DNA of 64,000 nt from a phage (GCA_033648345.1 GCA_033648345.1_4121.1); one strand, 5' to 3'; counted from the stretch's first letter, positions 41,403-60,332 are shown. The notes: generated from the sequence alone by a model not told the origin. Numbers and translations: made by a program.

Positions 41403-41460
41403 AATTTTGGGCGTAACTATGCACCCGGTGGGCTTGAGTCTTTCTCGACTTGATGGAACT
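41403..41460 (-). ncRNA. candidate small RNA/leader with conserved CCCACCGGGTGCAT core (element family E)
   Basis: Minus-strand TATAAT-like box at 41461-41466 followed by …CATCAAGTCGAGAAAG…AGCCCACCGGGTGCATAG…. Confidence 0.3.
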
Positions 41461-41621
41461 ATTATACAGTACTGGAAAAATAAAGCAATACCCTGGAAGC
41501 AAAAAAGTTTTAATTAATTTGCTTGCTATCCTGGGCCGGACTATGGTACTATATTTCAGTACTGAGAAAGTGCGTTTACCTGCTAGGGTGCGGGAGTGTA
41601 TCCTTTTTTTATATCTTGAAT

Positions 41622-41675
41622 TTTGGGCGTAATTCCGCACCCTCTGGGGTTTCCGCTTTCTCGCGTCTATGTAGT
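41622..41675 (-). ncRNA. candidate small RNA/leader, divergent element E copy
   Basis: Minus strand: TATAAT then CTACATAGACGCGAGAAAGCGGAAACCCCAGAGGGTGCGGAATTACGCCCAAAAT. Confidence 0.25.
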
Positions 41676-41998
41676 AATTATACGCTTTTTCAGGATCAAG
41701 TCAATACCTAAAAACAAAATAATTGAAAATAATTTAACGCGTTTAAACGGCCAGTAAAGCCCTGGAATGATTGGAATGGTGCAAATGTATAGCTTAGGTG
41801 TATTAATGCGTTAGAATGCGTCTGAGGCCGTTTTATGGGGTATAGGGATGATTTGGTGGATTGATTCAGTACTGAATAATAGTACTACTATATAGAAAGA
41901 TAGTTCCCCTGGATGGTTGCAGTACTGAATGATAGTACTGAATAATAGTTCCCCTATATAGAAAGAAAACTATTTTAAAAAGTATTTGTAGAAAGTAC

Positions 41999-42058
41999 TT
42001 GCAAACTAAGTTTAACGGCGTATAATGTTTTACATCGAGAGCGGGAACACTTCCCGCT
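41999..42058 (+). promoter_or_regulatory. early-type promoter (TTGCAA…TATAAT) with 5' stem-loop
   Basis: AGTACTTGCAAACTAAGTTTAACGGCGTATAATGTTTTACATC then GCGGGAACACTTCCCGC hairpin before SD. Confidence 0.6.
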
Positions 42059-42081
42059 ACATATTACGAGAGATTAAAACG

Positions 42082-42444
42082 ATGGCGACTCAAATCACTA
42101 AAATTATTGCTAACCTGGTTAACTTCCGCGACGAGATGAAAGGTCTTCCGGCTGAAACGGTAAAAATTCACATCGCAGCTTATCGGGAACTTATTGCAAT
42201 GTTGCCGCTTAAGCGTGAACAATACGCCGCGACCGTGATGCTTGATGCGATGATCCATAAGATGATCGCCAGTGATTTGACGATGGCGTATCAGTATATG
42301 GGTGAATTGTTCGCGGTGTATAGTAAACCAGTACCAGGAATGGAAAGTACAGAAGTATTACACGGTTTAAATTTAAAACAAGATGCATGGGATAATATGC
42401 CTCGTTTCCTGGTATGGGCTGACAGTGGCAAGATTTACGAATAA
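42082..42444 (+). CDS. hypothetical protein (120 aa)
   Basis: ATG after promoter hairpin and GAGAG SD; track start 42025 lies inside the promoter. Confidence 0.6.
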   Translation: MATQITKIIANLVNFRDEMKGLPAETVKIHIAAYRELIAMLPLKREQYAATVMLDAMIHKMIASDLTMAYQYMGELFAVYSKPVPGMESTEVLHGLNLKQDAWDNMPRFLVWADSGKIYE

Positions 42445-42458
42445 GTTTTAGAAAGTAC

Positions 42459-42516
42459 TTGCAAACTAAGTTTAAAAGCGTATAATGTTTTACATCAGGT
42501 GGGGAATAGTTCCCCA
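42459..42516 (+). promoter_or_regulatory. early-type promoter with 5' stem-loop
   Basis: Same consensus; hairpin GGGGAATAGTTCCCC. Confidence 0.6.
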
Positions 42517-42536
42517 CTATATAAGAGGATTAAAAA

Positions 42537-42776
42537 ATGGCTAAATCAAAAATGTTCTTAGGTCACAAAAACAAAACTCATTGGAATGTAAGCCTTTGGA
42601 TTAATAACGATGAGTCATTGTACCGGTTGGCCCTGGACTTTATTGCCGCCAATACTAATCGCAATGATGCGGCCCGTCATATGATGTTATTTTTAGAACA
42701 GACTGGACAAGATAAAACACCGGACGGATTCAAATATAGCACTACTGCGATCCGTGCGGCGATGGTTGGAATGTAA
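42537..42776 (+). CDS. hypothetical protein (79 aa), paralogue of 44576-44815
   Basis: AGAGGA SD; shares …GHKNKT[HQ]WNVSLWINN…TPDGFKYSTTAIRAAMVGM with 44576. Confidence 0.65.
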   Translation: MAKSKMFLGHKNKTHWNVSLWINNDESLYRLALDFIAANTNRNDAARHMMLFLEQTGQDKTPDGFKYSTTAIRAAMVGM

Positions 42777-42861
42777 TAGAATTTATTTAAAGTACTATCG
42801 CAAAAAATGATAGTACTTTATAATAGTGTTTTATTCATACACCAACGATAAGGGCAACAGC

Positions 42862-43128
42862 ATGAATATTAAGTATTTTGCGACGCGTGAACAAGCTCGG
42901 ATCGCCGCACGCCAGGACGGGGCAACGTTTAAAGATATGGGCGTACAATCGGAACGTGGTAAACGTTGGGCCATTATAAAGCGTAGTACCGCCAGATCAT
43001 TACAGTACTGGTTAGCGGCGTTAAAAAGTCCCGATAGTGTATCGCGTCGAGTGGTAGAAATAAAGCTCGACCGAAAGGGCAACCGCGTGACCGTGTACCG
43101 TACTAAAAAGATTGCAGTACTTGAATAA
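42862..43128 (+). CDS. hypothetical protein (88 aa), paralogue of 55885-56280
   Basis: AAGGG SD; shares FATREQARI…FKDMG…KRWA…DRKGNRVTVY with 55885. Confidence 0.6.
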   Translation: MNIKYFATREQARIAARQDGATFKDMGVQSERGKRWAIIKRSTARSLQYWLAALKSPDSVSRRVVEIKLDRKGNRVTVYRTKKIAVLE

Positions 43129-43135
43129 AAAGTAC

Positions 43136-43195
43136 TTGCAAACTATGTTTAATGGCGTATAATGTTTTACATCGAGAGCGGGAACACTTCCCGCC
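43136..43195 (+). promoter_or_regulatory. early-type promoter with 5' stem-loop
   Basis: TTGCAA 43136-43141, TATAAT, GCGGGAACACTTCCCGCC hairpin. Confidence 0.6.
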
Positions 43196-43215
43196 TATAA
43201 CCTGGAGTAATAAAA

Positions 43216-43446
43216 ATGACTAATATGTATATGACTGAAGTTAAAACCGTAAAAGATACTACCACGAATAAAACTACTTACTTACAGCGGATCTGCGGTG
43301 TATGGCAACGTATCAGCAAATCAAAGTACTTTAAATTAACATCATATGCAAACCGTTCGGATTCATTCAGTACTGAAATAAAAGGTAATAAAGTACACCA
43401 ATACGGCACTTATTATTATTATAGCCTGGACGCGATTGCAGTATAA
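43216..43446 (+). CDS. hypothetical protein (76 aa)
   Basis: GGAG SD. Confidence 0.6.
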   Translation: MTNMYMTEVKTVKDTTTNKTTYLQRICGVWQRISKSKYFKLTSYANRSDSFSTEIKGNKVHQYGTYYYYSLDAIAV

Positions 43447-43476
43447 GCAGTTTACAAATCTTTACAATTGCCGGTA

Positions 43477-43505
43477 TTGACTTATTTTGTCAGTACTGGC
43501 ATAAT
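43477..43505 (+). promoter_or_regulatory. sigma70-type promoter driving element E copy
   Basis: TTGACT 43477-43482, spacer with AGTACTG, CATAAT 43500-43505. Confidence 0.5.
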
Positions 43506-43509
43506 GTAT

Positions 43510-43557
43510 TCATTGGCAGATAAGCCGTAGCCCATAGGGTGCGGGAGTGTATCTATA
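43510..43557 (+). ncRNA. candidate small RNA/leader (element E)
   Basis: …AGCCCATAGGGTGCGGGAGTGTATCTATAG immediately downstream of a promoter; no ORF. Confidence 0.3.
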
Positions 43558-43577
43558 GAAAAAGTAGTTTATTACAG

Positions 43578-43620
43578 TTACAATTGTGCACCCGGTGGGT
43601 TAGCTGTTGTCATGGGGTAT
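43578..43620 (-). ncRNA. candidate small RNA/leader (element E, opposite strand)
   Basis: Minus strand: CATAAT (43621-43626) then …CATGACAACAGCTAACCCACCGGGTGCACAATTG; convergent with 43510 copy. Confidence 0.3.
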
Positions 43621-43649
43621 ATTATGCCAGTACTTGATAATGCTGTCAA
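43621..43649 (-). promoter_or_regulatory. minus-strand sigma70-type promoter
   Basis: Reverse complement reads TTGACA-17-CATAAT. Confidence 0.5.
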
Positions 43650-43695
43650 TACTTTTTTTTACTATTCAGTACTGAAAACTATTTTTAAAAAGTAC

Positions 43696-43723
43696 TTGCA
43701 AACTATGTTTAAAGGCGTATAAT
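43696..43723 (+). promoter_or_regulatory. early-type promoter (upstream member of a tandem pair)
   Basis: TTGCAA 43696-43701, TATAAT 43718-43723. Confidence 0.55.
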
Positions 43724-43730
43724 GTTTTAC

Positions 43731-43810
43731 ATCAGGACGGGGAACGAAATAAGTAACTCCCCGTTAAGTAGCCCAGGAGTAAGGCACACGAAAAACTCCC
43801 CTGATAAAAT
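43731..43810 (+). ncRNA. conserved non-coding leader between tandem promoters (element L)
   Basis: ATCAGGACGGGGAACGAAATAAGTAACTCCCCGTTAAGTAGCCCAGGAGTAAGG…ACGAAAAACTCCCC; no start codon; repeated at 54691 and 46677. Confidence 0.35.
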
Positions 43811-43813
43811 AGT

Positions 43814-43841
43814 TTGACAAATGTTTTTAAAAGCGTATAAT
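43814..43841 (+). promoter_or_regulatory. sigma70-type promoter (downstream member of tandem pair)
   Basis: TTGACA 43814-43819, TATAAT 43836-43841. Confidence 0.55.
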
Positions 43842-43873
43842 ACTTACATCAACTACTGAATGAGGGTTACAAA

Positions 43874-44485
43874 ATGAAAACTATCACTACTACTACTTTC
43901 GTTATGGATTTTTCTGAATTGAACGCAGAACAAAAAACGTCAGCTATCGAACTGGTTCGGGAACGTGAAAAAAACTCAAACGACAATTATTTTTCTGAAA
44001 GTGAAATTGAATACTATAAAGAAACAGTACTACCGGAATATGGCATTAATGACGCTGAAATACAATTCAGTGGTTTTTGGTCCCAGGGTGACGGTGCATC
44101 AATCAGTACTGACCACGTTGACGGTGTGAAGTTTTTACGCAAGGTAAGAGCATTAACTAAGTATCGCTCAATCCGTCACTTGCTGAATGAAGATGATTTG
44201 GCGATGAGTGTAAAGCGTTCTCATTCTTTGTACTTGCATGAGAATACTGTAAGCGGGTACATTGAATCGGCTTACACTGATTTAACCGCAAAACAAGAAA
44301 CGTTAGTTAATGAGCTTGAGGAACTACTCACTGAAACTATTCGTGAATTATCCCGCAAGTTGTACCGTGATTTAGAGAATGCATATGAGGATCAATTCAC
44401 TACTGAAAACATCGTATCACTGATTGAGGGTAACGAATATCAATTCAATGTTATTGATGGCGTAGTAGAATCAATCGAATATTAA
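43874..44485 (+). CDS. hypothetical protein (203 aa)
   Basis: GAGGG SD. Confidence 0.65.
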   Translation: MKTITTTTFVMDFSELNAEQKTSAIELVREREKNSNDNYFSESEIEYYKETVLPEYGINDAEIQFSGFWSQGDGASISTDHVDGVKFLRKVRALTKYRSIRHLLNEDDLAMSVKRSHSLYLHENTVSGYIESAYTDLTAKQETLVNELEELLTETIRELSRKLYRDLENAYEDQFTTENIVSLIEGNEYQFNVIDGVVESIEY

Positions 44486-44575
44486 TTCAAAAAGTACTTG
44501 CAAACTAAGTTTAAAAGCGTATAATACTTTATATCGAGGCGGGGAGTGGTTCCCCGCTCAAACGAGGATTTAAAA

Positions 44576-44815
44576 ATGGCTAGTACTAAAACTTATAACG
44601 GACACAAAAACAAAACTCAATGGAATGTAAGCCTTTGGATTAATAACGGTGAGTCATTGTATCGGCTTGCACAAAGTTGTATCGCACAAAGTAGAACTAA
44701 AGATATTGCAGCGGAATGCATGTACCGCAGATTAAAAGCCAACGGTACTACTACAACGCCGGACGGCTTTAAGTATAGCACTACTGCGATCCGTGCTGCA
44801 ATGGTTGGAATGTAA
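44576..44815 (+). CDS. hypothetical protein (79 aa), paralogue of 42537-42776
   Basis: Promoter + GGCGGGGAGTGGTTCCCCGC hairpin + GAGGA SD then ATG 44576. Confidence 0.65.
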   Translation: MASTKTYNGHKNKTQWNVSLWINNGESLYRLAQSCIAQSRTKDIAAECMYRRLKANGTTTTPDGFKYSTTAIRAAMVGM

Positions 44816-44873
44816 TATTCAGTACTGTAACAATGGCGGGGAATGGTTCCCGCCTTTATTGAGGGTTTATCTA

Positions 44874-45134
44874 ATGAGTAAAGTAATTAACTATACAGTA
44901 CTAAGCAAGTCATTGTCTATCAGTGAATGCACCGATGGTTTTTGGCTTTATGATGAAACGCGTGGAATGAATTTAGCTATGCGTGTAAAAACTGCTGAGG
45001 CGGCGTATCTTGAGGCACTGGAATACTACCAGGAACGTTTAACGGAAGTAGAAGAAGATTATAAAAGCCTCAAAGCGAAAGTAGATCATTTCGTCGGTCA
45101 ATTCATCGAGGAAGACGACGATAAACAATACTGA
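44874..45134 (+). CDS. hypothetical protein (86 aa)
   Basis: Intercistronic hairpin GGCGGGGAATGGTTCCCGCC, GAGGG SD, ATG 44874. Confidence 0.55.
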   Translation: MSKVINYTVLSKSLSISECTDGFWLYDETRGMNLAMRVKTAEAAYLEALEYYQERLTEVEEDYKSLKAKVDHFVGQFIEEDDDKQY

Positions 45135-45222
45135 AAAAAAGTACTTGCAATTAGTTTTCAGTACTGTATAATAGTTTACATCAAGTGGAGAAATGGTTCT
45201 CCCTGGTAATGAGGAAAATAAA

Positions 45223-45444
45223 ATGGCTAATATCACTACTCTTTCCCAACTGGAAGCACTGGTTAAATCTATGCGGGAACATGCCGACAAAATCGGCGTA
45301 CAAGATCCAGCCGTTTGCTTCTGCGACGAATTGAATGATGATACCCTTGTAATAGCAGAAGTCCAGGACGTTTCTAACTATTCCTCGCGTTACACTGGCG
45401 GCGTAGCAAATAAAGGCGACTTCTGTTTATACCTTACAAAATAA
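45223..45444 (+). CDS. hypothetical protein (73 aa)
   Basis: Promoter TTGCAA 45145/TATAAT 45167, hairpin, GAGGA SD. Confidence 0.6.
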   Translation: MANITTLSQLEALVKSMREHADKIGVQDPAVCFCDELNDDTLVIAEVQDVSNYSSRYTGGVANKGDFCLYLTK

Positions 45445-45449
45445 CAACG

Positions 45450-45479
45450 CGGGGAGATAATAACTCCCCGTTACTTTTT
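45450..45479. terminator. rho-independent terminator
   Basis: CGGGGAGATAATAACTCCCCG hairpin + TTACTTTTTC. Confidence 0.6.
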
Positions 45480-45502
45480 CAGTACTGAATCATTTAATAG
45501 AC

Positions 45503-45550
45503 GGATCTATGCACCCGGTGGGTTAGTGACTGTTTCGTCTTGATGTAGTA
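45503..45550 (-). ncRNA. candidate small RNA/leader (element E, opposite strand)
   Basis: Minus strand: CATAAT (45551-45556) then TACTACATCAAGACGAAACAGTCACTAACCCACCGGGTGCATAGATCC. Confidence 0.3.
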
Positions 45551-45579
45551 ATTATGCCAGTACTGGATGCAGTTGTCAA
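45551..45579 (-). promoter_or_regulatory. minus-strand sigma70-type promoter
   Basis: Reverse complement reads TTGACA-17-CATAAT. Confidence 0.5.
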
Positions 45580-45687
45580 CAACTATTTTTCAAATACTTT
45601 TTATTAAAATACTTGCAATTAGTTTTTAAACGCGTATAATGTTTTGCATAGGGGGAGCGGTTCCCCTGGTAACTAAGGAATAATAAA

Positions 45688-45924
45688 ATGCTTGAACAAA
45701 TCAAATCAACGTCTGCGAATGTAACGGGAACGGTAGCACACTTTACTAGTGATGAATCGCGGGGCGTTCCCTATTGTGCTGTACATGTAAACACTGATGG
45801 CAACTACTGGTTTACGGTTTACGGATCATATTCATTTGGACGGCCTGGGCATCAAAAAATTCTGGATAAAGTACAACCAACGGGTAAAAATATCACTGCC
45901 GAAATGTTTTATAAAAAATCATAA
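45688..45924 (+). CDS. hypothetical protein (78 aa)
   Basis: Promoter TTGCAA 45613/TATAAT 45635, hairpin GGGGGAGCGGTTCCCC, AAGGAA SD. Confidence 0.6.
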   Translation: MLEQIKSTSANVTGTVAHFTSDESRGVPYCAVHVNTDGNYWFTVYGSYSFGRPGHQKILDKVQPTGKNITAEMFYKKS

Positions 45925-46008
45925 AGTACTTGATAATAGTTTTTAGTACTGTATAATATTTTACATCGCAAGGGGGAGCGGTTCCCCCTAGTAACTAAGG
46001 ATAATCAA

Positions 46009-46308
46009 ATGAAAATTGCAATCATCGCCCTGGCTTTATCTGTTTCCTCTTTCGCTGTTAATGCGTCATTAGATGTAAGTAGTGAAAAATTCATTCAGTG
46101 CACTGTTGCAATGACCGATGAAAGAACTGGCGAGATTGTATTAAAGGATTTAGAGATCCAGCCGGAAGCATTTAAAAACGGCCCGTTCCATGAAGAAGAC
46201 GAAAACGGTAGCACAACAATTTATTATGATGCCAGTACTAAACGCGGTTCGGTCACTGTAATGGATACTGAGAAAGTAACTCATACTGGCGTTATTAATT
46301 GCCGTTGA
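46009..46308 (+). CDS. secreted protein (99 aa), signal peptide
   Basis: MKIAIIALALSVSSFAVNA leader; own promoter and hairpin. Confidence 0.65.
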   Translation: MKIAIIALALSVSSFAVNASLDVSSEKFIQCTVAMTDERTGEIVLKDLEIQPEAFKNGPFHEEDENGSTTIYYDASTKRGSVTVMDTEKVTHTGVINCR

Positions 46309-46329
46309 TAGATACTACGGGGTAACATC

Positions 46330-46560
46330 ATGACTAAGCGAATTGTTTTACTTAACGAAAGCAGTACTACACAACTACTTAACGCCGTGCATTATGATAT
46401 TGAAACGAGCGTTAATCTTATCAGTACTGTAGTACTGTTGGACACTGGAAAGGTCGCCAATGATAAAGCGATTGCAGGTATATTAACGGATCTTGAGCCT
46501 GGTAGCAGTGCACCAATAACGTTAAATGGTAAAGTGTTTAATATTTTACTCACTGATTAA
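46330..46560 (+). CDS. hypothetical protein (76 aa)
   Basis: ORF followed by strong terminator. Confidence 0.55.
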   Translation: MTKRIVLLNESSTTQLLNAVHYDIETSVNLISTVVLLDTGKVANDKAIAGILTDLEPGSSAPITLNGKVFNILLTD

Positions 46561-46566
46561 GTACAT

Positions 46567-46592
46567 AGCCCACCTGGTGGGCTTTTTTGTTT
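46567..46592 (+). terminator. rho-independent terminator
   Basis: AGCCCACC-T-GGTGGGCT hairpin + TTTTTTGTTTTT. Confidence 0.7.
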
Positions 46593-46676
46593 TTGTAGTA
46601 TCGTAGTACTGAGATACTTTGAAAATAGTTTTAAAAAAGTAGTTGACATTACCGCAGAAAAGCGTAGAATGTATTA

Positions 46677-46750
46677 CATCAAGACGGGGAGCACTAAGTA
46701 GACCGCCAGTAAGTCGAACGAAAAACTGGACACGTCGAGAAAACTTTGAT
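46677..46750 (+). ncRNA. conserved non-coding leader (element L, divergent copy)
   Basis: TTGACA 46643/TAGAAT 46665 then ATCAAGACGGGGAGCACTAAGTAGACCGCCAGTAAG…ACGAAAAACTGG. Confidence 0.3.
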
Positions 46751-46793
46751 ACACTAATAAACGTAAACTAAACTTTAATTGAGGATTTATAAA

Positions 46794-47276
46794 ATGGCTA
46801 ATGTAAAATCATTCATCAAAGCACTGGTAGCAAATGAAACTAACGTCGCGGCAGAGATCCTGGCTGAACTGGATAACGATACCATGAAAGCGGTACGCAA
46901 TAATTTTAACATCGCGTACAGTACTGCGAAAGAACTACAAGCAAATAAAGCAGCAGAGATCGAGGCAGCAAAGGCGGCCCGTGAAGCAGAACTACAAGCA
47001 ACAATTGAAAGTATTCAGGCGGCAGTAGTTGGATTGGATCTGGAAGTAGTTACAGAGATGGCACAAAAAGCCCTGGCGAAAAAGTACGGGGAAGACAAGC
47101 CAGAAGTAAAAGCCAAAAAATGGATTCAAGAACGTGTAGCGGTAGTACTTGATAATGGGGAAGAATATCTGATTCCGGTGCGTGGTAACTGCATTGCTGT
47201 AGTACTGGATGCGATTAACTCCAGCGGTATGACTCGCGAGGAATGGATCGAAGCTCATCGCAAAGTGGAAGCATAA
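46794..47276 (+). CDS. hypothetical protein (160 aa)
   Basis: GAGGA SD then ATG 46794. Confidence 0.65.
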   Translation: MANVKSFIKALVANETNVAAEILAELDNDTMKAVRNNFNIAYSTAKELQANKAAEIEAAKAAREAELQATIESIQAAVVGLDLEVVTEMAQKALAKKYGEDKPEVKAKKWIQERVAVVLDNGEEYLIPVRGNCIAVVLDAINSSGMTREEWIEAHRKVEA

Positions 47277-47297
47277 CAATTAAAGTACTGAATCACT

Positions 47298-47326
47298 AGC
47301 CCACTGTATAAGTGGGCTTTTTTGTG
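47298..47326 (+). terminator. rho-independent terminator
   Basis: AGCCCACT-GTATA-AGTGGGCT hairpin + TTTTTTG. Confidence 0.7.
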
Positions 47327-47342
47327 TTTATCGTTTACCAGG

Positions 47343-47412
47343 CCACCAGCACCGCCTAGAATCGATTCTAACGCATTAAACTGATTATCTGATGCATCGC
47401 CCTAGCTGGTGG
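47343..47412. repeat. inverted Chi pair (CCACCAGC … GCTGGTGG) flanking a TAGAATCGATTCTA palindrome
   Basis: Reverse-complement Chi at 47343-47350, Chi at 47405-47412; 14-bp perfect palindrome between them. Confidence 0.55.
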
Positions 47413-47550
47413 AGTTAAGGCCGTTAGAATGCGATTTAGAGCGTTTAAAGTATTTTGCAAAAAGTAATAAAAAGTACTTGCACGATTCAGAGATTAGCGT
47501 ATAATGTTTTACATCAAGGCGAAACACCTTAACTAACTGAGGATATAAAG

Positions 47551-47703: not shown

Positions 47704-47773
47704 AAAATAGTTTGACAATAGTTTTAAGTACTGACATAATACATACATCAACTACTGAATAGGAATCAAAACA

Positions 47774-50510: not shown

Positions 50511-50520
50511 ATGAAAAAAG

Positions 50521-50554
50521 TGGTTGACTTCGGTCAGCCATTTTGCTATTATAT
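50521..50554 (+). promoter_or_regulatory. terminator-hairpin/promoter composite (PeSL-like)
   Basis: GGTTGAC-TTCG-GTCAGCC hairpin + TTTTGCTATTATAT. Confidence 0.6.
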
Positions 50555-50555: not shown

Positions 50556-50606
50556 TTCATTGAGAGATAGCTCACTAGCCCACCGGGTGCATAAGTGTAT
50601 CTATTA
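50556..50606 (+). ncRNA. candidate small RNA/leader (element E) downstream of PeSL
   Basis: TTCATTGAGAGATAGCTCACTAGCCCACCGGGTGCATAAGTGTATCTATTATAT. Confidence 0.3.
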
Positions 50607-52183: not shown

Positions 52184-52212
52184 TTGACATACAATGCCAG
52201 TACTGGCATAAT
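52184..52212 (+). promoter_or_regulatory. sigma70-type promoter driving element E copy
   Basis: TTGACA 52184-52189, 17-nt spacer with AGTACTG, CATAAT 52207-52212. Confidence 0.55.
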
Positions 52213-52217: not shown

Positions 52218-52266
52218 CATCAAGACGAGAACGTCACTAACCCATAGGGTGCACAAATGTAACTAT
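52218..52266 (+). ncRNA. candidate small RNA/leader (element E)
   Basis: CATCAAGACGAGAACGTCACTAACCCATAGGGTGCACAAATGTAACTAT; no ORF. Confidence 0.3.
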
Positions 52267-52508
52267 ATAATATCGATCAATAAATGATCAAAAAAGTACT
52301 GGATCAATTTAGCATAAGGAGTATAATTCTGATCAATTCTTGATCAAAGGCAATATACGCAGTTGAATTTATATAGACAGTACAAAGGCGTTACTATCCG
52401 TGGTAATGCTGGTGGATATGTAGTATCATATGGTTTGAATAAGATTAGCACTAGTAGTATTATTGTAGCATTACAGTACTATAGTATTTTTATAATGAGG
52501 TTAAAATA

Positions 52509-53806: not shown

Positions 53807-53889
53807 AAACTATTGACAATGCAATCCAGTACTGTATAATAGTTTACATGAAGGGGAGAAATGATTCTCCCCACTAAGAGGAAAGAAAA

Positions 53890-54102: not shown

Positions 54103-54188
54103 AAAGTACTTGCACTGTACTGAATAAAGTGTATAATGTTTTATATCGGAAGGGGAATAGTTCCCCTCCGAACAAAGAGGAAAGTATA

Positions 54189-54362
54189 ATGGTCCAGGTA
54201 GAATTAACAGTACTGAAAGATCTGTTTTATCGGATTGGTACTACTGGCGAATATCCGAAGGGTGATAATGCAAAACTTTACGTATCACTCGACTTATGGC
54301 AACGCGAACAATTAGCAACGGCCTGGCGTAAAGGCAAAGCAGATCGAGAGGTGAAAGCATGA
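54189..54362 (+). CDS. hypothetical small protein (57 aa)
   Basis: Promoter + GGAAGGGGAATAGTTCCCCTCC hairpin + AGAGGA SD; track start 54087 is in the promoter. Confidence 0.55.
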   Translation: MVQVELTVLKDLFYRIGTTGEYPKGDNAKLYVSLDLWQREQLATAWRKGKADREVKA

Positions 54363-54508
54363 AAGAATTCTTATTTGAAGTAGTGTTTCAAGGTGTCGGC
54401 AATAACCAACTGATTCGATCAAGTGGTTATAATGTTAACCAGGCATGGAATAACATTAAACAAATGTACCCGAACGCTATCACATATCGCAACCCGAAAG
54501 AAGTTTAA
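54359..54508 (+). CDS. hypothetical small protein (49 aa)
   Basis: ATGA overlap with previous stop. Confidence 0.4.
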   Translation: MKEFLFEVVFQGVGNNQLIRSSGYNVNQAWNNIKQMYPNAITYRNPKEV

Positions 54509-54522
54509 AAATAATTGAAAAA

Positions 54523-54558
54523 GGGATTGACTCCGGTCAGTCCCTTTGCTATTATATA
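54523..54558 (+). promoter_or_regulatory. terminator-hairpin/promoter composite (PeSL-like)
   Basis: GGGATTGAC-TCCG-GTCAGTCCC hairpin + TTTGCTATTATATA. Confidence 0.6.
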
Positions 54559-54603
54559 CGCATAGAAACAAATTAGCCCACCGGGTGCATAAATGTATCT
54601 ATT
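54559..54603 (+). ncRNA. candidate small RNA/leader (element E) downstream of PeSL
   Basis: …AATTAGCCCACCGGGTGCATAAATGTATCTATTG followed by a Chi octamer at 54608. Confidence 0.3.
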
Positions 54604-54690
54604 GTTTGCTGGTGGCTAGTACTATCAAGTACTGAAAACTATTTTTAAAAAGTACTTGCAAAGTATCACGATAAGCGTATAATGTTTTAC

Positions 54691-54770
54691 ATCAGGACGG
54701 GGAACGAAACAAGTAACCCCGTTAAGTAGTCCAGGAGTAAGACATACGAAAAACTCCCCTGATAAAATAG
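54691..54770 (+). ncRNA. conserved non-coding leader between tandem promoters (element L)
   Basis: Near-identical to 43731-43810. Confidence 0.35.
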
Positions 54771-54832
54771 TTTGACAATAGAAAGTAAACGAGTATAATA
54801 CTTACATCAACCACTGATAAGGAAACATTAAA

Positions 54833-55108
54833 ATGCGGATTCTACTGACAGCTAACGAAATCGAACAAGTACTGACTACTAACCTGGAAGACTGGAAACG
54901 TGAAGCAGATATCCAGGCGGTTCAATGGCTTAACGATAAGTTAACGCCGGATGACTTAAGCAAGATTGTAGATCCTCAATTCTACGAAGATATTCACGAC
55001 ACCGCGTTAAGCGTCGAGGATGTACTTGATAAGCACTACATTGATACTGATTTACATGTTTACGGTCGTAAAAACTTTATCACTATTCACGACATTTACA
55101 ATACTTAA
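54833..55108 (+). CDS. hypothetical protein (91 aa)
   Basis: AAGGAAA SD. Confidence 0.6.
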   Translation: MRILLTANEIEQVLTTNLEDWKREADIQAVQWLNDKLTPDDLSKIVDPQFYEDIHDTALSVEDVLDKHYIDTDLHVYGRKNFITIHDIYNT

Positions 55109-55196
55109 GTATTGACAAAGTATCTTAGTACTGTATAATAGTTTACATCAAGTGAGGGGAAACGGTTCCCCTCCTAACAAAGAGAGAGAAATAAAA

Positions 55197-55379
55197 ATGG
55201 CTAAGTGCACTATCTGCAAGAAAGAAATAGTATTAGTTCCAAGTGCCCGTGAACGTGCCGCTCGGTTTGGTGGCAAAGCGTCAGACTATACAAAAATGTT
55301 TACTGCCCATACAGCTTGCCAGGTAGCAAAACGTTCACAAGAAAGCGTAGAATTAATGCGTAAACTTTCCAAAAAATAA
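55197..55379 (+). CDS. small Cys-containing protein (60 aa)
   Basis: Promoter TTGACA…TATAAT + GAGGGGAAACGGTTCCCCTC hairpin; MAKCTICKK…HTAC. Confidence 0.55.
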   Translation: MAKCTICKKEIVLVPSARERAARFGGKASDYTKMFTAHTACQVAKRSQESVELMRKLSKK

Positions 55380-55465
55380 GTATTGACAAAGTATCTTAGT
55401 ACTGTATAATAGTTTACATCAAGTGAGGGGAAACGGTTCCCCTCCTAACAGAGAGAGAAATAAAA

Positions 55466-55789
55466 ATGGCTATGATCCTTACCCAGAAAGTGGAATTGAA
55501 AATTGTAACCTCCTTTGACATTAAAGTTAATCGGTGGACTGATTCACACGGCAATACTTACCACTCTTGCTACGTGTCTGCGTTAATTGGCGACCGCTGG
55601 GAAGACCTGGGACACGAAACCTTTACATACGGTTACGGTACGCAAGGCGAATACACTGGTTTGGAGATCATTAAAGAAACCGTTATAGGTTTCAACCCGA
55701 AAGAAAAAGTTATTCACCGCATCGAAAAAGAGATTAACAAAGAAATAACAGTTCGCTACTACGATGTAAAACGTAAGAAAGACATGTAA
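55466..55789 (+). CDS. hypothetical protein (107 aa), paralogue of 48606-48950
   Basis: Exact duplicate of the promoter module upstream of 55197. Confidence 0.65.
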   Translation: MAMILTQKVELKIVTSFDIKVNRWTDSHGNTYHSCYVSALIGDRWEDLGHETFTYGYGTQGEYTGLEIIKETVIGFNPKEKVIHRIEKEINKEITVRYYDVKRKKDM

Positions 55790-55884
55790 TAGAATCCATT
55801 TAAAGTACTATTTGACATTGCCCAGATAGTACTTTATAATAGACTCTAACTTGTAGTACTAACTCAACTAATAGGATGTATACC

Positions 55885-56280
55885 ATGATTACTAAATTCT
55901 ACGCTACCCGTGAAGCTGCCCGTATTGTTGCACGCGAGGAAGGAGCAGCATTTAAAGACATGGGAACGACAGCACCGAAAGGTCAACGCTGGGCCGTACA
56001 GTTCAAAGAAATCTCTGATATTGTGAATTCACCTGAGCCAGTACTGACAGCAGCAGAACTAAAACGAGCGGATATGCTGGCGGCAATACTTGACGCACAA
56101 GATGAGTTTATCGCTGATTCTGATATCAAAGTACAGGTAAACCACACCGCATGGACTCACGCGGATCACCTGGCAAACCTTAAGCGTCCAAGTGAACTGA
56201 TTCGCAACCAGAAAGAGATCCGACATGATCGTAAGGGTAATCGTGTAACAGTATACAGTAAACGCCGCCAGGTTATCTAA
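55885..56280 (+). CDS. hypothetical protein (131 aa), paralogue of 42862-43128
   Basis: Promoter TTGACA…TATAAT; AGGATG SD then ATG 55885. Confidence 0.6.
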   Translation: MITKFYATREAARIVAREEGAAFKDMGTTAPKGQRWAVQFKEISDIVNSPEPVLTAAELKRADMLAAILDAQDEFIADSDIKVQVNHTAWTHADHLANLKRPSELIRNQKEIRHDRKGNRVTVYSKRRQVI

Positions 56281-56302
56281 TAACTTGCAGTACTAACAAC
56301 AC

Positions 56303-56328
56303 GGCGGGATCAGTTCCCGCCTTTTTTA
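56303..56328 (+). terminator. rho-independent terminator
   Basis: GGCGGGATCAGTTCCCGCC hairpin + TTTTTT. Confidence 0.7.
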
Positions 56329-56341
56329 TAGGACAAACAAA

Positions 56342-56596
56342 ATGATTAAGGTTCAACTATATAAAGATAACATCTTACGGGTACACTATAAAGCACCGAA
56401 GAGAATCATCACAAAGGCCGTACAGCTTGCTAATGAGTTTATTAATGGTAACCTATTACCGAGGAAGTTAAGCAACGGGAAACTGCGTGTAATCGACGTG
56501 GACACTAACAACAGGATAGTAATCGAGAACACAGGAAAGATAAACCTTTATGAGCATCAACAATACAATAAGAAAATAAAACTAATATCACGTTGA
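56342..56596 (+). CDS. hypothetical protein (84 aa)
   Basis: ORF, weak SD. Confidence 0.5.
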   Translation: MIKVQLYKDNILRVHYKAPKRIITKAVQLANEFINGNLLPRKLSNGKLRVIDVDTNNRIVIENTGKINLYEHQQYNKKIKLISR

Positions 56597-56649
56597 CAGT
56601 ACTCAATTGTTTTAGTATTATGTACACATACCAACACGGGAGAAACAAA

Positions 56650-56868
56650 ATGAAATTATCTAAAATCGAAAAGAAAACTATTGATGAAGCAGTTAAGCAC
56701 GGTTATACCTTTCGTAATGATTCACATTTTACCAATTATCAACAAGGGTATCGTACTATTAAAAAACTTATTGACAAAGGTTTATTAGTTGAAGTCAATA
56801 ACGGCAATGGCATTGAGTATCAACCAACACAGGACGCATTTTATTTTAAGAAATATAATATTATCTAA
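56650..56868 (+). CDS. hypothetical protein (72 aa)
   Basis: Promoter TTGACAGTACTCAA…; GGGAGA SD then ATG 56650. Confidence 0.55.
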   Translation: MKLSKIEKKTIDEAVKHGYTFRNDSHFTNYQQGYRTIKKLIDKGLLVEVNNGNGIEYQPTQDAFYFKKYNII

Positions 56869-56926
56869 TTGACAGTACTCAAATGTTTTAGTACTATATG
56901 TACATACCAACACGGGGGAAAACAAA

Positions 56927-57169
56927 ATGATTACTTTAGAAAAACGTATCAAAGAAACTACATCGCTGGTGGAATTGTTAACAGTACTCAAATGTAAAAC
57001 AACACCATTCAGCACGCCGGACTTTATTAATATGGTTGATGTTAACGGTCGTTATCGCATTGCAGTAGAACATGGAACAGCGAAAGTATTCAGTACTAAA
57101 AACACTAAGGAAGTGATTCACGCGGTTAGTGTGAAAAAAGTGGTTGCCATTGATAGTAAAGTACTGTAA
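56927..57169 (+). CDS. hypothetical protein (80 aa)
   Basis: Near-duplicate of the promoter upstream of 56650. Confidence 0.6.
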   Translation: MITLEKRIKETTSLVELLTVLKCKTTPFSTPDFINMVDVNGRYRIAVEHGTAKVFSTKNTKEVIHAVSVKKVVAIDSKVL

Positions 57170-57200
57170 TATAGTTTCATTAACTCAAGGAGTAAATGCA

Positions 57201-57785
57201 ATGCGTAATTATACTAAATTCATCCGTACACTGTCAGAAATGGAAACCAACAAAGAGATCCTTTCAGCTTGTCGGTTAGCTGGCCTGGAGATCATCGGTG
57301 CTGGTTCTTCCCGTATAGTATTCGCTTTAAATGATCGGTTAGTGATTAAGGTCGCGAATTGTGATGCGGGTGTAGAACAAAATGAAACTGAATGTAAGGT
57401 ATGGAATTTTTTAGACTATGACCGCCCTCAGTTGAAACAGTACTTTGCAAAGGTGCATATGCATTTATGCGATCCTGATAATATGTTTATCGTTATGGAT
57501 CGGTTGAGTACTGCAAGCAAAGGCAGTGTGAAGCACGTTAACGCGTGCAATGAATTAAAGTACAATATTAAACGTAATGCAATCGAACGCCAGCACCGCT
57601 TTGCTGATGCACTACAACACGTTGATGATACATTATCAACACTAACGATAAGAGATATCAGAAAACAGAATATCGGCCAGGATCGTAATGGCCTTATTAA
57701 AGTACTTGATTACGGTTTAACCAGCAATATCTGGAATCAGTACTATAAAAAGCGTGATGTGGCAGCAAGTAAAGTAACACGATAA
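57201..57785 (+). CDS. protein-kinase-like protein (194 aa)
   Basis: AAGGAG SD; GAGSSRIVF (Gly-rich loop), VIKV, IRDIRKQNIG (catalytic-loop-like), KVLDYG (DFG-like) in kinase order. Confidence 0.55.
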   Translation: MRNYTKFIRTLSEMETNKEILSACRLAGLEIIGAGSSRIVFALNDRLVIKVANCDAGVEQNETECKVWNFLDYDRPQLKQYFAKVHMHLCDPDNMFIVMDRLSTASKGSVKHVNACNELKYNIKRNAIERQHRFADALQHVDDTLSTLTIRDIRKQNIGQDRNGLIKVLDYGLTSNIWNQYYKKRDVAASKVTR

Positions 57786-57800
57786 AAAAAGATTAAAAAA

Positions 57801-57836
57801 GGGATTGACTCCGGTCAGTCCCTTTGCTATTATATA
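57801..57836 (+). promoter_or_regulatory. terminator-hairpin/promoter composite (PeSL-like)
   Basis: GGGATTGAC-TCCG-GTCAGTCCC hairpin + TTTGCTATTATATA. Confidence 0.6.
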
Positions 57837-57892
57837 TTCATTGAGAGATAACTCACTGACCCATAGGGTGCGGAAGTGTATCTATTATATAA
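57837..57892 (+). ncRNA. candidate small RNA/leader (element E) downstream of PeSL
   Basis: TTCATTGAGAGATAACTCACTGACCCATAGGGTGCGGAAGTGTATCTATTATAT. Confidence 0.3.
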
Positions 57893-58008
57893 GCATTCAG
57901 TACTGAAAACTATTTTAAAAAAGTACTTGCATTGTACTTAGAATCAAGTATAATGTTTTATATCGAGAGGGGGAAATGGTTCTCCCTGGTACATTAAGGA
58001 ATAAAATC

Positions 58009-58416
58009 ATGACTACTACTAATCAAGCTCGGTCCATCGCCAACGATAAAAATCATGCTGCAATGGTCGCTGGTTACATTGAAGCTATGCAATTCAGTAC
58101 TGTACACAATGAGAACGGCGAATACCTGGAAGATTATGAATTATCAGAGCAAGCCCATCAAGCGGCAGTGATTGCATGTTCACGTTTCCTTGCTGTACAT
58201 GGTGAAGATATGGAAACAGTACAAAAACACCATAATCCTGATTATACTTATAGTCATGCAGGTCATGATCTCTTTCTTACTCGCGAAGGTCACGGCACTG
58301 GTTTTTGGGATCGTGATATCGGTCACTATGATGATATATTCACTAAGTACTGCGAAGAAATCAACGTTTGCGATCCCTATGTAGGCGATGATAATCTAAT
58401 CTATATGGGCGAATAA
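58009..58416 (+). CDS. hypothetical protein (135 aa)
   Basis: Promoter + GGGGGAAATGGTTCTCCC hairpin + AAGGAA SD; track start 57976 is in the hairpin. Confidence 0.6.
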   Translation: MTTTNQARSIANDKNHAAMVAGYIEAMQFSTVHNENGEYLEDYELSEQAHQAAVIACSRFLAVHGEDMETVQKHHNPDYTYSHAGHDLFLTREGHGTGFWDRDIGHYDDIFTKYCEEINVCDPYVGDDNLIYMGE

Positions 58417-58504
58417 AAGTATTTGACAAAGTATATCAGTACTGTATAATAGTTTACATCAAGGGGAGAATAGTTCTCCCCCACCAATAAAAGGAAACAA
58501 AATT

Positions 58505-58777
58505 ATGTCCAGCTACTCCGCTACTATGATCATTAAAGATATGAACGGTAATCCTACTTCTGCTGGTGGATCATTTGGAAACATTAATTTAGATGGTCGG
58601 TTATCCATGCAATCAGCCATCGATGCAGCGAAAGAAGTTTTTAAGAATGAATGTACTGTAAGTAAGCTGGATTATATGGGATTCGCTATCGAAAAAACTA
58701 ATCGTTTTGTGAACTACAAAAATCCACTGATGATCGATACTAACCTGAAAGCAAACGAAGTGGGGTACTTATTATGA
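58505..58777 (+). CDS. hypothetical protein (90 aa)
   Basis: Promoter TTGACA…TATAAT + hairpin + AAGGAA SD. Confidence 0.6.
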   Translation: MSSYSATMIIKDMNGNPTSAGGSFGNINLDGRLSMQSAIDAAKEVFKNECTVSKLDYMGFAIEKTNRFVNYKNPLMIDTNLKANEVGYLL

Positions 58778-58965
58778 CAGTTGAAGAAGTTAAAAAAGTA
58801 CTGGCAGTACTACGCTATCATAATCATTGCAAGGTGAAGAATGATCCTGATTATCTCGATTCATCCCTGGAAGAGGATACACTACAAGCAATAAGCCATA
58901 TGCAAAAAATGCTTAAGCGTATGACCGAAAAGAATAGGCCGGACTATATCGGAAATAAAATTTAA
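58774..58965 (+). CDS. hypothetical protein (63 aa)
   Basis: ATGA overlap with previous stop. Confidence 0.55.
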   Translation: MTVEEVKKVLAVLRYHNHCKVKNDPDYLDSSLEEDTLQAISHMQKMLKRMTEKNRPDYIGNKI

Positions 58966-59052
58966 AAAGTACTTGCATTGTAGTTAGATTAACGTATAAT
59001 GTTTTATATCGAGAGGGGGAAATGGTTTCCCCTCAAGTCCAGGAGATACACC

Positions 59053-59316
59053 ATGAACACTATCGAAATCACTATCAATGCACACGTATACGACAACGTA
59101 GTACTGCAAACTACTATGACCGCTAATGATACCAGTACTTTGCGGAATACTGTTATTAGTGCCGTATGTGCTGCAATCGGTGATGTATCCCTGGAAAATG
59201 CAGAACATATCAACAACGGTTTCACTATGTGCAAGCGTGATAACGCAAAACATATCATCGTGGAAGGTTACGGCGGTGTAGAATTTAATGTTTATATGAA
59301 AAAAGTACTTGCATAA
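59053..59316 (+). CDS. hypothetical protein (87 aa)
   Basis: Promoter + hairpin + AGGAGA SD then ATG 59053. Confidence 0.6.
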   Translation: MNTIEITINAHVYDNVVLQTTMTANDTSTLRNTVISAVCAAIGDVSLENAEHINNGFTMCKRDNAKHIIVEGYGGVEFNVYMKKVLA

Positions 59317-59383
59317 TAACTAAAACAAAGTATAATGTTTTGCATAGGGGGAGATATCCTCCCCCACTAAAAGGAGTAATAAA

Positions 59384-59608
59384 ATGGCTAACTTTGATGA
59401 ACTGATGCGGGAAGTAGCTAACCTGGCAGAAGAGAAGAAATCATTCGATTCTATCTATAACACCGCTCACCGTGATTCAGTACTGGCATGTAACCAGGAT
59501 CAAAAAGATGAACTAATCGCCACCTATCATGAAGCATGGAAGTACTACCGACAATGGGAGAAAGAAGAAAGTGAGTCTACCATTGACGGCCTCAATAATC
59601 TAATCTAA
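59384..59608 (+). CDS. hypothetical protein (74 aa)
   Basis: Promoter + GGGGGAGATATCCTCCCCC hairpin + AAGGAG SD. Confidence 0.6.
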   Translation: MANFDELMREVANLAEEKKSFDSIYNTAHRDSVLACNQDQKDELIATYHEAWKYYRQWEKEESESTIDGLNNLI

Positions 59609-59684
59609 AAGTTTTATTTCAGTACTATTGACATAGCTTGATAGTACTGATGTAATAACTTTACTAACTACAAGGGGAAACATA

Positions 59685-59942
59685 ATGGAACAGTTCACAC
59701 AATATCGGGTAAATCCACAAGCTATGGCCTACGTAGAAGACCATAAAACGTTACCAGTACTGCAACCAGTTAAAGGCCGTATCTATCGTGGCCTTGCCTG
59801 GGATACGGCCCAGGATGGATATAAAACCGTCGCCGTGGGGATGTATTGCGGGAATGGTGAATGGTTTGATCCTAGCAATCCGATTGCACTTGACAGTACT
59901 GAAAAAATGAAATGGGCCGACTACATCGAAGATATTTCATAA
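59685..59942 (+). CDS. hypothetical protein (85 aa)
   Basis: Promoter TTGACA…; AAGGGGA SD. Confidence 0.6.
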   Translation: MEQFTQYRVNPQAMAYVEDHKTLPVLQPVKGRIYRGLAWDTAQDGYKTVAVGMYCGNGEWFDPSNPIALDSTEKMKWADYIEDIS

Positions 59943-60032
59943 AAACTATTTGACAGTACTAACCAGTAATGTATAATGTTTTACATAGAGCGGGGGAATA
60001 GTTCTCCCGCCAATAGTTTGGAGTTAAACATT

Positions 60033-60233
60033 ATGTCTATCGCTATCGCCCTGGTTGAAGTACTGAAAGAAGCTAAAGCCAACCAGATCGACGTAAAGAT
60101 CCAGGAACTACAAAACGGCTTAATCGGCTGTACTTGTACCGCTGGTGGAGCGGCAGACTATCGAGAACACGAATCACTCGAATCACTGGTTCGGTATCTT
60201 ACCATGATCGTTGATGATTGGAGAATCATCTAA
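60033..60233 (+). CDS. hypothetical protein (66 aa)
   Basis: Promoter + GCGGGGGAATAGTTCTCCCGC hairpin + GGAG SD; contains Chi at 60141. Confidence 0.55.
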   Translation: MSIAIALVEVLKEAKANQIDVKIQELQNGLIGCTCTAGGAADYREHESLESLVRYLTMIVDDWRII

Positions 60234-60251
60234 CAAAAAAAGAATAAAAAA

Positions 60252-60288
60252 GGGATTGACTCCGGTCAGTCCCTTTGCTATTATATAC
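60252..60288 (+). promoter_or_regulatory. terminator-hairpin/promoter composite (PeSL-like)
   Basis: GGGATTGAC-TCCG-GTCAGTCCC hairpin + TTTGCTATTATATA. Confidence 0.6.
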
Positions 60289-60332
60289 GCATAGACAAAA
60301 ACTAGCCCACAGGGTGCATAGGTGTATCTAAA
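60289..60332 (+). ncRNA. candidate small RNA/leader (element E) downstream of PeSL
   Basis: CGCATAGACAAAAACTAGCCCACAGGGTGCATAGGTGTATCTAAAAT; Chi at 60364 follows. Confidence 0.3.

Follow-up and report, generated by a model that had tools for sequence, protein, structure and literature searches.

Short signals placed close to early phage promoters have been described in a few systems. The put sites of HK022 (putL and putR), cis-acting antiterminator RNAs that make the polymerase transcribing them resistant to terminators, occur in two copies per genome, both pointing into genes, and measure ~65-70 nt; their layout, two stem-loops with conserved unpaired residues, is reportedly that given by King et al. 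1996 and Komissarova et al. 2008. The nut sites of lambda combine a boxA (YGCUCUUWA) and a boxB, a small hairpin with a fixed purine-rich pentaloop to which an N protein binds. Stabiliser hairpins located a few nt from the 5' end, such as ompA hp1 and the T7 phi10 leader, have free stem sequences, reside on mRNAs and carry no conserved sequence. Phage RNA decoys, as pseudo-ToxI of phage TE and the RNA anti-CRISPRs (Racr), are short structured noncoding RNAs, sometimes multi-copy, which bind a host protein. To our knowledge, almost nothing is known about the start of infection by Rak2-like jumbo phages (350-380 kb). In T4-like phages, strong sigma70 early promoters with AT-rich upstream sequences, repeated among small ORFan genes, are found in PeSL (promoter-early stem-loop) cassettes (Arbiol 2010, Comeau 2014), in which an upstream stop codon is followed by a promoter, a G/C-rich terminator, and the Shine-Dalgarno (SD) sequence and ATG of the next gene (PMC2839356). 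PA5oct, a related jumbo phage, has in its terminal repeat two RNA-seq-supported, highly expressed noncoding RNAs, ncRNA001 and ncRNA002, each accounting for 1-5% of phage reads (PMC7318152). This work deals with a 64,000-nucleotide stretch of phage DNA (GCA_033648345.1 GCA_033648345.1_4121.1; hereafter the window, numbered from its first letter), which hosts ten copies of a ~50-nt element located at the predicted 5' end of early transcripts.

On sequence evidence, the element is a new, well-supported structured RNA motif and a candidate new RNA family. It includes, in order, the predicted transcription start (the A of a conserved CAT), a first hairpin (H1), a CUA linker, a second hairpin (H2), GC, RRARRU, and an unpaired conserved tail, GUAUCUAU. 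H1 is a 5'-terminal hairpin of 3-5 bp that begins 2-5 nt after the predicted start, and has a free stem sequence and a purine-rich loop of 6-8 nt ending in AA. H2 is a near-invariant mini-hairpin, RCCC-N3/4-GGGU, and conservation decays ~16 nt past GGGUGC. H1 is missing from about one fourth of the copies (43572-, 54560+ and 60295+ in the window), which have instead an A-rich, unpaired 5' end of 14-15 nt. The motif is real, and more sharply defined than in a preliminary description of the window, where the TGTATCT now recognized as part of the unpaired tail had been assigned to the core; its transcription and its function we infer from sequence.

The 12-nt core CCCA(YM/GA)GGGTGC has 10 matches at ≤1 mismatch in the 64-kb window against 0.32 expected, an 18-mer of the element 9 matches against 0.00 expected. 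A covariance model (CM), built mostly from relatives, retrieved exactly 10 copies at E ≤1, six on the plus and four on the minus strand, matching all the positions of the preliminary description, which had counted at least ten copies in both orientations. It had also placed each copy just downstream of a -10 box on its own strand, and indeed the conserved CAT is found 5-6 nt after the -10 in all ten. Each element starts a few bases from the predicted start site of a sigma70-type promoter on the same strand, and all ten promoters are of the consensus sigma70 type, with an AT-rich upstream tract as in PeSL. Eight have a 17-bp spacer followed by TATTAT or TGGCATAAT. Both promoter types proposed earlier were recovered among these, four being terminator-embedded, PeSL-like TTGACT-17-TATTAT and four TTGAC(A/T)-17-TGGCATAAT; two TATAAT promoters at the left end add to them. 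A G/C-rich stem-loop terminator overlaps or adjoins the promoter at four of the ten copies (50517, 54520, 57798, 60249), and not at the other six. The location outside open reading frames (ORFs) holds as well, since no copy falls within genes annotated in Escherichia phage fEgEco12, the closest relative, the first of which begins at about window position 42005. Copies, promoters and closely associated features are as follows.

41405..41454 (minus): element copy 1; H1 AGUC/GACU, loop GAGAAA; H2 GCCC-ACC-GGGU; variant tail ending in UUACGCCCAAAA; CM 47.0 bits
41461..41488 (minus): promoter of copy 1; TTGCTT-16-TATAAT, AGTACT in the spacer; read from the sequence
~41578..41603 (plus): degenerate, partial eleventh copy, CCUGCUAGGGUGCGGGAGUGUAUCC, facing copy 2; terminator-like at 41585-41604
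41621..41670 (minus): element copy 2; H1 CGC/GCG, loop GAGAAA; H2 ACCC-CAGA-GGGU; variant tail; CM 27.2 bits, E 1e-4
41677..41704 (minus): promoter of copy 2; TTGACT-16-TATAAT; 11/12 in the promoter scan
43477..43505 (plus): promoter of copy 3; TTGACT-17-TGGCATAAT
43510..43558 (plus): element copy 3; H1 UGGC/GCCG, loop AGAUAA; CM 47.5 bits; face-to-face with copy 4
43572..43610 (minus): element copy 4; no H1, A-rich 5' end AUGACAACAGCUA; CM 32.9 bits; convergent with copy 3
43621..43649 (minus): promoter of copy 4; TTGACA-17-TGGCATAAT
45450..45470 (minus): bidirectional terminator hairpin (fold), which would stop the copy 5 transcript at ~100 nt
45495..45544 (minus): element copy 5; H1 GAC/GUC, loop GAAACA; CM 56.9 bits; antisense to the flanking plus-strand genes
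45551..45579 (minus): promoter of copy 5; TTGACA-17-TGGCATAAT
50517..50552 (plus): promoter of copy 6; terminator-embedded (PeSL-like) TTGACT-17-TATTAT
50557..50606 (plus): element copy 6; H1 UGAG/CUCA, loop AGAUAG; CM 59.0 bits
50646..50673 (plus): second promoter (P2), TTGCAA-16-TATAAT; directly serves the gene at 50725-51066
52184..52212 (plus): promoter of copy 7; TTGACA-17-TGGCATAAT
52219..52268 (plus): element copy 7; H1 GACG/CGUC; tail GUAACUAU; CM 59.0 bits
54520..54555 (plus): promoter of copy 8; terminator-embedded
54560..54604 (plus): element copy 8; no H1, 5' end AUAGAAACAAAUUA; CM 36.7 bits; followed by Chi at 54608 and P2 at 54656
57798..57833 (plus): promoter of copy 9; terminator-embedded
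57838..57887 (plus): element copy 9; H1 UGAG/CUCA, loop AGAUAA; CM 62.2 bits
60249..60284 (plus): promoter of copy 10; terminator-embedded
60295..60333 (plus): element copy 10; no H1, 5' end AUAGACAAAAACUA; CM 40.8 bits; followed by Chi at 60364 and P2 at 60399

Evidence for a structure comes from comparison of the copies with those of related phages. MAFFT misaligns H1, and a covariance-model seed of uniform geometry, made of 26 copies, was needed. Searching the window and 17 loci with the model gave 96 matches, corresponding to 80 distinct copies from several phage genera. In the alignment of the 80 copies pairing is observed in 95.8% of the cells, against 76.9% in shuffles (none of 500 reached the observed value), and drops to ≤46% when partners are slid. 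Changes on both sides of a pair were counted in 103 cells, with 40 expected. The three inner pairs of H1 are formed in 97-100% of the copies, and GC, CG, AU and UA are all used; a covariance analysis of this kind had been suggested in the preliminary description, and its outcome is that these pairs covary strongly. The 80-copy alignment was fitted to the model, and is hence biased toward structure; in an independent mutual-information scan of all column pairs the same three pairs rank as the top three, and nothing else covaries. Among relatives H1 stems are as diverse as UCCA/UGGA, CGAA/UUCG, AGACA/UGUCU, GGC/GCC, CCAC/GUGG, GAC/GUC and GAG/CUC, to cite some, while the position of the hairpin and its purine-rich loop are constant. 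H2 is closed at its base by a pair that alternates between A-U and G.U, and a compensatory CCU/AGG replaces CCC/GGG in two copies. RNAalifold, run on the ten window copies alone, detects only H2, a 4-bp hairpin. A crude hairpin-finder scores stems of ≥4 bp in 55% of the copies against 24% of mononucleotide shuffles, a moderate discrimination only, and the real structural evidence is the covariation at fixed geometry.

Additional pairings were considered and rejected. An outer stem joining the 5' end to the TATCT tail (AGAUA/UAUCU, AGACG/CGUCU) looks plausible in window copies and single folds, but does not covary in the 80 copies, and its 5' partner is actually the loop or an arm of H1. No mutual-information signal supports a pseudoknot in which the tail would pair with the loop of H1 or of H2, and the third hairpin that the tail of copy 5 could form (AUAGA-UCCG-UCUAU) lacks conservation.

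The notion that the element is a structure in the transcript is supported by the free stem sequences in which complementarity is nonetheless kept, by the variable distance from the -10, and by an orientation that is constant with respect to the promoter. In a duplex DNA-binding site one would expect the sequence to be conserved, not just the complementarity, and the distance between the -10 and the invariant core varies from 21 to 28 nt, so that the core is not phase-locked to the promoter. These data speak against the DNA site recognised at initiation that the preliminary description had entertained as an alternative. A related view is that the element has no RNA function at all, and is either a protein-binding DNA site or the passenger of a mobile, ~200-bp PeSL-like promoter cassette spread by duplication or gene conversion. 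Copies 6, 8, 9 and 10 are in fact parts of repeated 200-230 bp cassettes (terminator/promoter, element, AGTACT, AT-rich tract, second promoter), those at 50.5, 54.5 and 57.8 kb being 77-88% identical, and T4-like phages are known to recombine at PeSL cassettes (PMC2839356). Yet the element is common to different promoter types, with and without the cassette, and is kept across genera whose genomes barely align; covariation of the H1 stem argues against mere recent copying as well as against a duplex DNA site, and variable spacing is an additional difficulty. A passenger or a DNA site is therefore scarcely probable, the least so of the explanations considered here. By comparison with the T5 N25 promoter, selection for rapid promoter escape may be a further reason why the first 15-20 transcribed bases are rich in purines.

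The region of the window hosting the element can be placed with some precision. In the 50-58 kb segment identity is 96% with fEgEco12 and 91-97% with other jumbo phages of the Asteriusvirus or PBECO4/121Q-like kind, which measure 350-385 kb. The alignment with fEgEco12 begins, from its position 1, at window position 40317, and homology extends to 61750. The direct terminal repeat (DTR) of fEgEco12 is 20,993 bp long, as confirmed by restriction digests (PMC13070987); the ~40.3-61.7 kb interval of the window is therefore its equivalent. By sequence the phage is an Asteriusvirus, a Rak2-like jumbo phage, with a DTR of ~21 kb. All ten copies (41.4-60.3 kb) lie inside the DTR part of the window, and in every locus examined the motif is confined to the terminal-repeat early region of Rak2-like jumbo phages. 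An ARAGORN cloverleaf search found no tRNA or tmRNA gene in the window.

The DTR has other sequence peculiarities. Chi sites (GCTGGTGG) number 13 against 0.72 expected; 12 of the 13 are in the terminal-repeat part (40893-60371), 10 of those on the plus strand. A minus/plus pair is at 40893/40905, ~580 bp from the inferred left end, and the sites at 54608 and 60364 come directly 3' of element tails. The element-promoter spacers of relatives contain Chi or its complement. The distribution suggests protection of linear ends from RecBCD. A non-coding array of short repeats (GGCTAAACGGCTAGAT and TGGCTGGG, three times each, TTTGGACG and CTGGATGG) spans 41020-41240, ~0.7-0.9 kb from the inferred left DTR end; the leftward element-bearing promoters at 41.4-41.7 kb transcribe toward these repeats, a candidate origin, iteron array or packaging signal. 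The ATTTTGGGCGTA motif occurs three times (41036-41052, 41405-41420, 41621-41636), and its complement stands in place of the usual GUAUCUAU tail in copies 1 and 2. Five GATC sites are clustered within ~80 nt directly 3' of copy 7 (52270-52350; tcGATCaataaatGATCaaaaaagtactgGATCaattt..ctGATCaattcttGATCaaagg).

Among phages, the element was detected by BLAST in 39 records, including Yersinia phage fHe-Yen9-03 and Klebsiella phage RCIP0023. Four loci were searched whole with the covariance model, which counted 10 copies in fEgEco12, the same as in the window and in the same order, 11 in the Yersinia phage locus, 8 in the EJP2 locus and 11 in the Klebsiella RCIP0023 locus. A pattern scan of IMG/VR found the element only on jumbo-phage contigs, presumably derived from phages akin to 121Q, fHe-Yen9-04, RaK2, GAP32 (Cronobacter) and CBB (Pectobacterium/Erwinia), and on three further phage contigs from metagenomes, two other matches being due to chance. 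Phages infecting Escherichia, Salmonella, Klebsiella and Yersinia, and the contigs attributed to GAP32 and CBB, all keep H2 and the tail, which are retained while stems and flanks diverge; the value for fHe-Yen9-03 in the average nucleotide identity (ANI %) column of a published comparison table is 23.7 (PMC13070987). In Rfam 15 no family matches the 64 kb at gathering score, and none overlaps the element at E ≤10 over 41-61 kb. No match was found at E ≤1 in 5,426 complete genomes of E. coli, the only host species searched. The PeSL papers and those on fEgEco12, CBB, phAPEC6 and PA5oct, which together with a search for Asteriusvirus transcriptomes made up the literature covered, do not mention the element.

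Promoters are extremely dense in the DTR. Between 41001 and 61000 there are 110 sigma70-like sites against 67 expected, ~45 of which strong and 12 a perfect TTGACA-16/17-TATAAT, roughly one strong promoter per small gene. The nine non-element promoters that were read are followed by a short leader with an SD-like purine run, and in eight an ATG is found within ~60 nt. The ten element promoters form a distinct subclass, as none leads straight into a gene; the element marks early promoters that differ from the rest. In 88 element-plus-context rows, what follows is a facing partner copy within 90 nt (23 rows), a second promoter, the gene-serving one (34 rows), or an intrinsic terminator within 20-50 nt (14 rows); a row can fall into more than one category, and the terminator of copy 5, at least, escaped the crude rule by which terminators were scored. 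About 30% of the copies are oriented against the genes, uniformly on the plus strand, in annotated relatives. Copy 5 runs into the bidirectional terminator, and its predicted RNA is ~100 nt long. Folding of the copy 3 transcript (43512-43660) gives a single long hairpin (-49 kcal/mol, z -3.7), at whose base the 5' end of the RNA pairs with the complement of the opposing -35, followed by U8; the predicted product is a discrete RNA of ~147 nt. Copies 1 and 2 point leftward, out of the repeat, toward minus-strand genes adjoining the right-hand repeat copy. Of the short promoter-proximal RNAs or leaders envisaged in the preliminary description, the RNA part is supported by H1 covariation, and the units are for the most part self-contained, not simple leaders of genes. 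Nor is the element a PeSL. It shares with PeSL strong sigma70 early promoters, AT-rich upstream sequences and repetition among small ORFan genes, and at four copies a terminator hairpin wrapped around the -35, but it constitutes an additional transcribed module, after which comes not a gene but a second promoter, a terminator or a facing copy, and it is found also behind non-PeSL promoters.

Some features of the same units are noted separately. Transcripts from the second promoters (TTGCAA-16-TATAAT) start with a GC-rich hairpin of their own (as an example, GGGGAAACggtTTCCCC) before the SD; these hairpins, at 50680-50705, 54690-54730, 57965-57990 and 42035-42060, are a separate conserved leader feature. 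Fur-box-like palindromes such as GAGAATGATAATCATTTAC (compare GATAATGATAATCATTATC) are centred in face-to-face pairs of Klebsiella, Yersinia and metagenomic relatives (loci L002 at ~11700 and ~10840, L015 at ~6090, L001 at ~345, L018 at ~1290); the face-to-face pair of the window has none.

Face-to-face copies raise the hypothesis of a sense/antisense network, in which anti-element RNA made by the pairs, complementary to the conserved H2 and tail, would anneal to all element-bearing leaders and direct their cleavage by RNase III, or termination, so that early transcripts are shut off or processed, in analogy with P4 CI RNA and ColE1 RNA I/II. Convergent pairs occur in Asteriusvirus, Yersinia and Klebsiella loci, in the contig attributed to CBB and in two metagenomic contigs, at the following positions.

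43510/43610: convergent pair in the window
283/414 and 2547/2660: convergent pairs in locus L001
11642/11779: convergent pair in locus L002
12509/12621: convergent pair in locus L014
6036/6161: convergent pair in locus L015
1227/1356: convergent pair in locus L018

The anti-element of one copy would match other copies over ~25-28 nt. However, most copies are unpaired, the within-pair transcript self-folds into a long hairpin that would compete with pairing in trans, and nothing covaries outside H1, all of which makes a network of this sort very unlikely.

In layout the element is closest to put. As put, it lies just downstream of early promoters on the transcribed strand, is small, contains no ORF, needs no obvious protein, and has two stem-loops with conserved unpaired residues, though this is true for ~75% of the copies, ~25% lacking H1. 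It may be hypothesized that the element works in cis in processive antitermination, the nascent RNA staying on the polymerase (put-like) or recruiting a factor (nut-like). Transcripts from element promoters would then read through early terminators into delayed-early genes, and those from ordinary promoters would stop. The location directly behind early promoters fits, as does the general put layout; H1, as boxB, is a small promoter-proximal hairpin with a purine-rich loop; four copies are exactly at terminator/promoter boundaries of 3-4 kb transcription units, and the restriction to one promoter subclass is what two classes of transcripts would require. In contrast to put, there are 10-12 copies per repeat, ~30% of them antisense or convergent; read-through from these would produce antisense RNA or cause head-on collisions. 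Terminators stand behind many copies, in several cases good ones within 20-50 nt. The element model, run on the 24.0-38.5 kb region of HK022 to see whether the motif occurs there, gave only matches of ≤10 bits, in coding DNA. A boxA is missing, since YGCTCTTWA has 52 matches against 47.7 expected, none adjoining an element, and the invariant second hairpin and the tail have no counterpart in nut. Moreover, the 6-8 nt loop of H1 varies within one genome (GAGAAA, GCGAAA, AGAUAA, AGAACAA), unlike that of boxB, and a Pfam scan of 51 ORFs recognised no N-like protein. The element thus fails the put tests that were run, and antitermination in cis is rather unlikely. Were it correct, a protein-independent antiterminator would exist in a T4-related phage, with a bearing on how delayed-early read-through is achieved.

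Alternatively, H1, alone or with H2, could be a generic stabiliser or insulator, guarding early transcripts from 5'-end-dependent decay (RppH, RNase E) with no specific partner. The hairpin begins 2-5 nt after the predicted start and its stem is free in sequence with pairing kept, as expected if structure alone matters, and as in ompA hp1 and the T7 phi10 leader. Those, however, lack conserved sequence and belong to mRNAs, and a stabiliser leaves unexplained both the near-invariance of H2 and tail across genera, and the fourth of the copies with 14-15 unpaired nt in place of H1. Stand-alone and antisense units carry no message to protect, and in the window cassettes that were read the gene-proximal promoters have 5' hairpins of their own. 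We regard a purely protective function as unlikely, somewhat more so than antitermination.

The explanation we tentatively favour, as possible though short of probable, is that the element is an abundant immediate-early RNA, which acts itself as a protein-binding handle or decoy. The ~50-nt module would be the extreme 5' end of transcripts made by the host sigma70 RNA polymerase from a dedicated subclass of strong early promoters in the DTR. Since the DTR is present at both ends, a packaged genome should carry twenty copies; the ~10 gene copies of each repeat would fire on DNA entry and release small RNA in a burst. Protection of the 5' end would fall to H1, and a conserved partner would recognise the invariant face made of H2 and tail. 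This partner would be a host protein shared by the Enterobacterales, or else a phage protein specific to the clade, and the RNA would work as a decoy or a recruitment handle. Copies, predicted promoters, covarying structure, restriction to the terminal repeat, cross-genus conservation and genomic contexts are directly observed; promoter firing, RNA ends and, most of all, the binding function and the partner belong to the proposal. An RNA product fits better than an obligatory cis leader because the element has its own promoters, is found, pointing either way, between a terminator upstream and the promoter that the gene itself has, occurs in several terminator-bounded units and in ten copies per repeat, and has one conserved face, H2 and tail; the ~30% of copies lying against the genes also fit better an RNA product. 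The terminal-repeat RNAs of PA5oct are a precedent for noncoding RNA in this part of a related genome, but are 236 and 451 nt long and single copy, and ncRNA001, the one compared, has no sequence similarity to the element.

Several data weigh against an RNA product. Folding energies of single copies are unremarkable (z +0.5 to -2.2). No terminator is seen between the element and the second promoter at copies 6, 8, 9 and 10; the RNA of these four cassettes would run into the gene, and could equally be a cis leader. Transcript data for this phage group were not found in the literature searched. Pfam scans of 51 terminal-repeat ORFs detected ParE-like, DksA/TraR, GNAT and kinase domains and DUFs, and recognised no RNA-binding domain, and in Rfam searches of the window the element resembled no known protein-binding RNA.

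A more specific version of the RNA-product hypothesis is that the element is a multi-copy immediate-early decoy, an RNA-based device for takeover or anti-defence, in which H2 and tail would sequester an Enterobacterales-wide host factor or a small immune signal. Candidate targets would be a nuclease, an RNA chaperone, or an immune sensor or effector, and the action would take place within the first minute, before any phage protein is made. Pseudo-ToxI and Racr mimic a known host RNA, whereas no counterpart of the element was found among the 5,426 E. coli genomes, nor does it form a tandem repeat. In this specific form the hypothesis is unlikely. Resemblances perceived by eye were also set aside: the tail as a boxA-like sequence, an IHF site, a -10-like pause element or an extended SD, and the likeness to the sarcin-ricin loop or to CsrA sites, are weak or limited to some copies, and the likeness to a type I-F CRISPR repeat rests on CACUA, merely an H1 arm plus the linker in some copies.

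A sharply defined, highly conserved, multi-copy RNA signal on one subclass of the earliest promoters offers an experimental entry to the start of infection. If acting as a free RNA, the element would add an RNA decoy or scaffold to a mostly protein-based early repertoire of host takeover. In cis or in trans, it is a candidate RNA family, diverse enough in sequence to be tested structurally and genetically.

Two further repeats were noted in the window. An exactly duplicated promoter and leader (TTGACAtagtttgatagtactggCATAAT..atcaagacaactaagaggaaa) is found at 48226-48290 and 48520-48585, before two different small ORFs, and weak Rfam matches to 'mir-1000' fall on both copies. The palindrome AGTACT occurs 275 times in 64 kb, against ~22 expected under a first-order model, and CAGTACTG 63 times against ~1 expected. 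AGTACT is found in both coding and non-coding DNA, and its density rises from 3.2 per kb outside the terminal repeat to 6.5 per kb within (sites are, as an example, at 40268-40296, 43491, 45480 and 50488). It resides in promoter spacers adjoining the -10, immediately 5' of -35 boxes, in terminator stems (CCAGTACT..AGTACTGG), and 2-13 nt 3' of most element tails.

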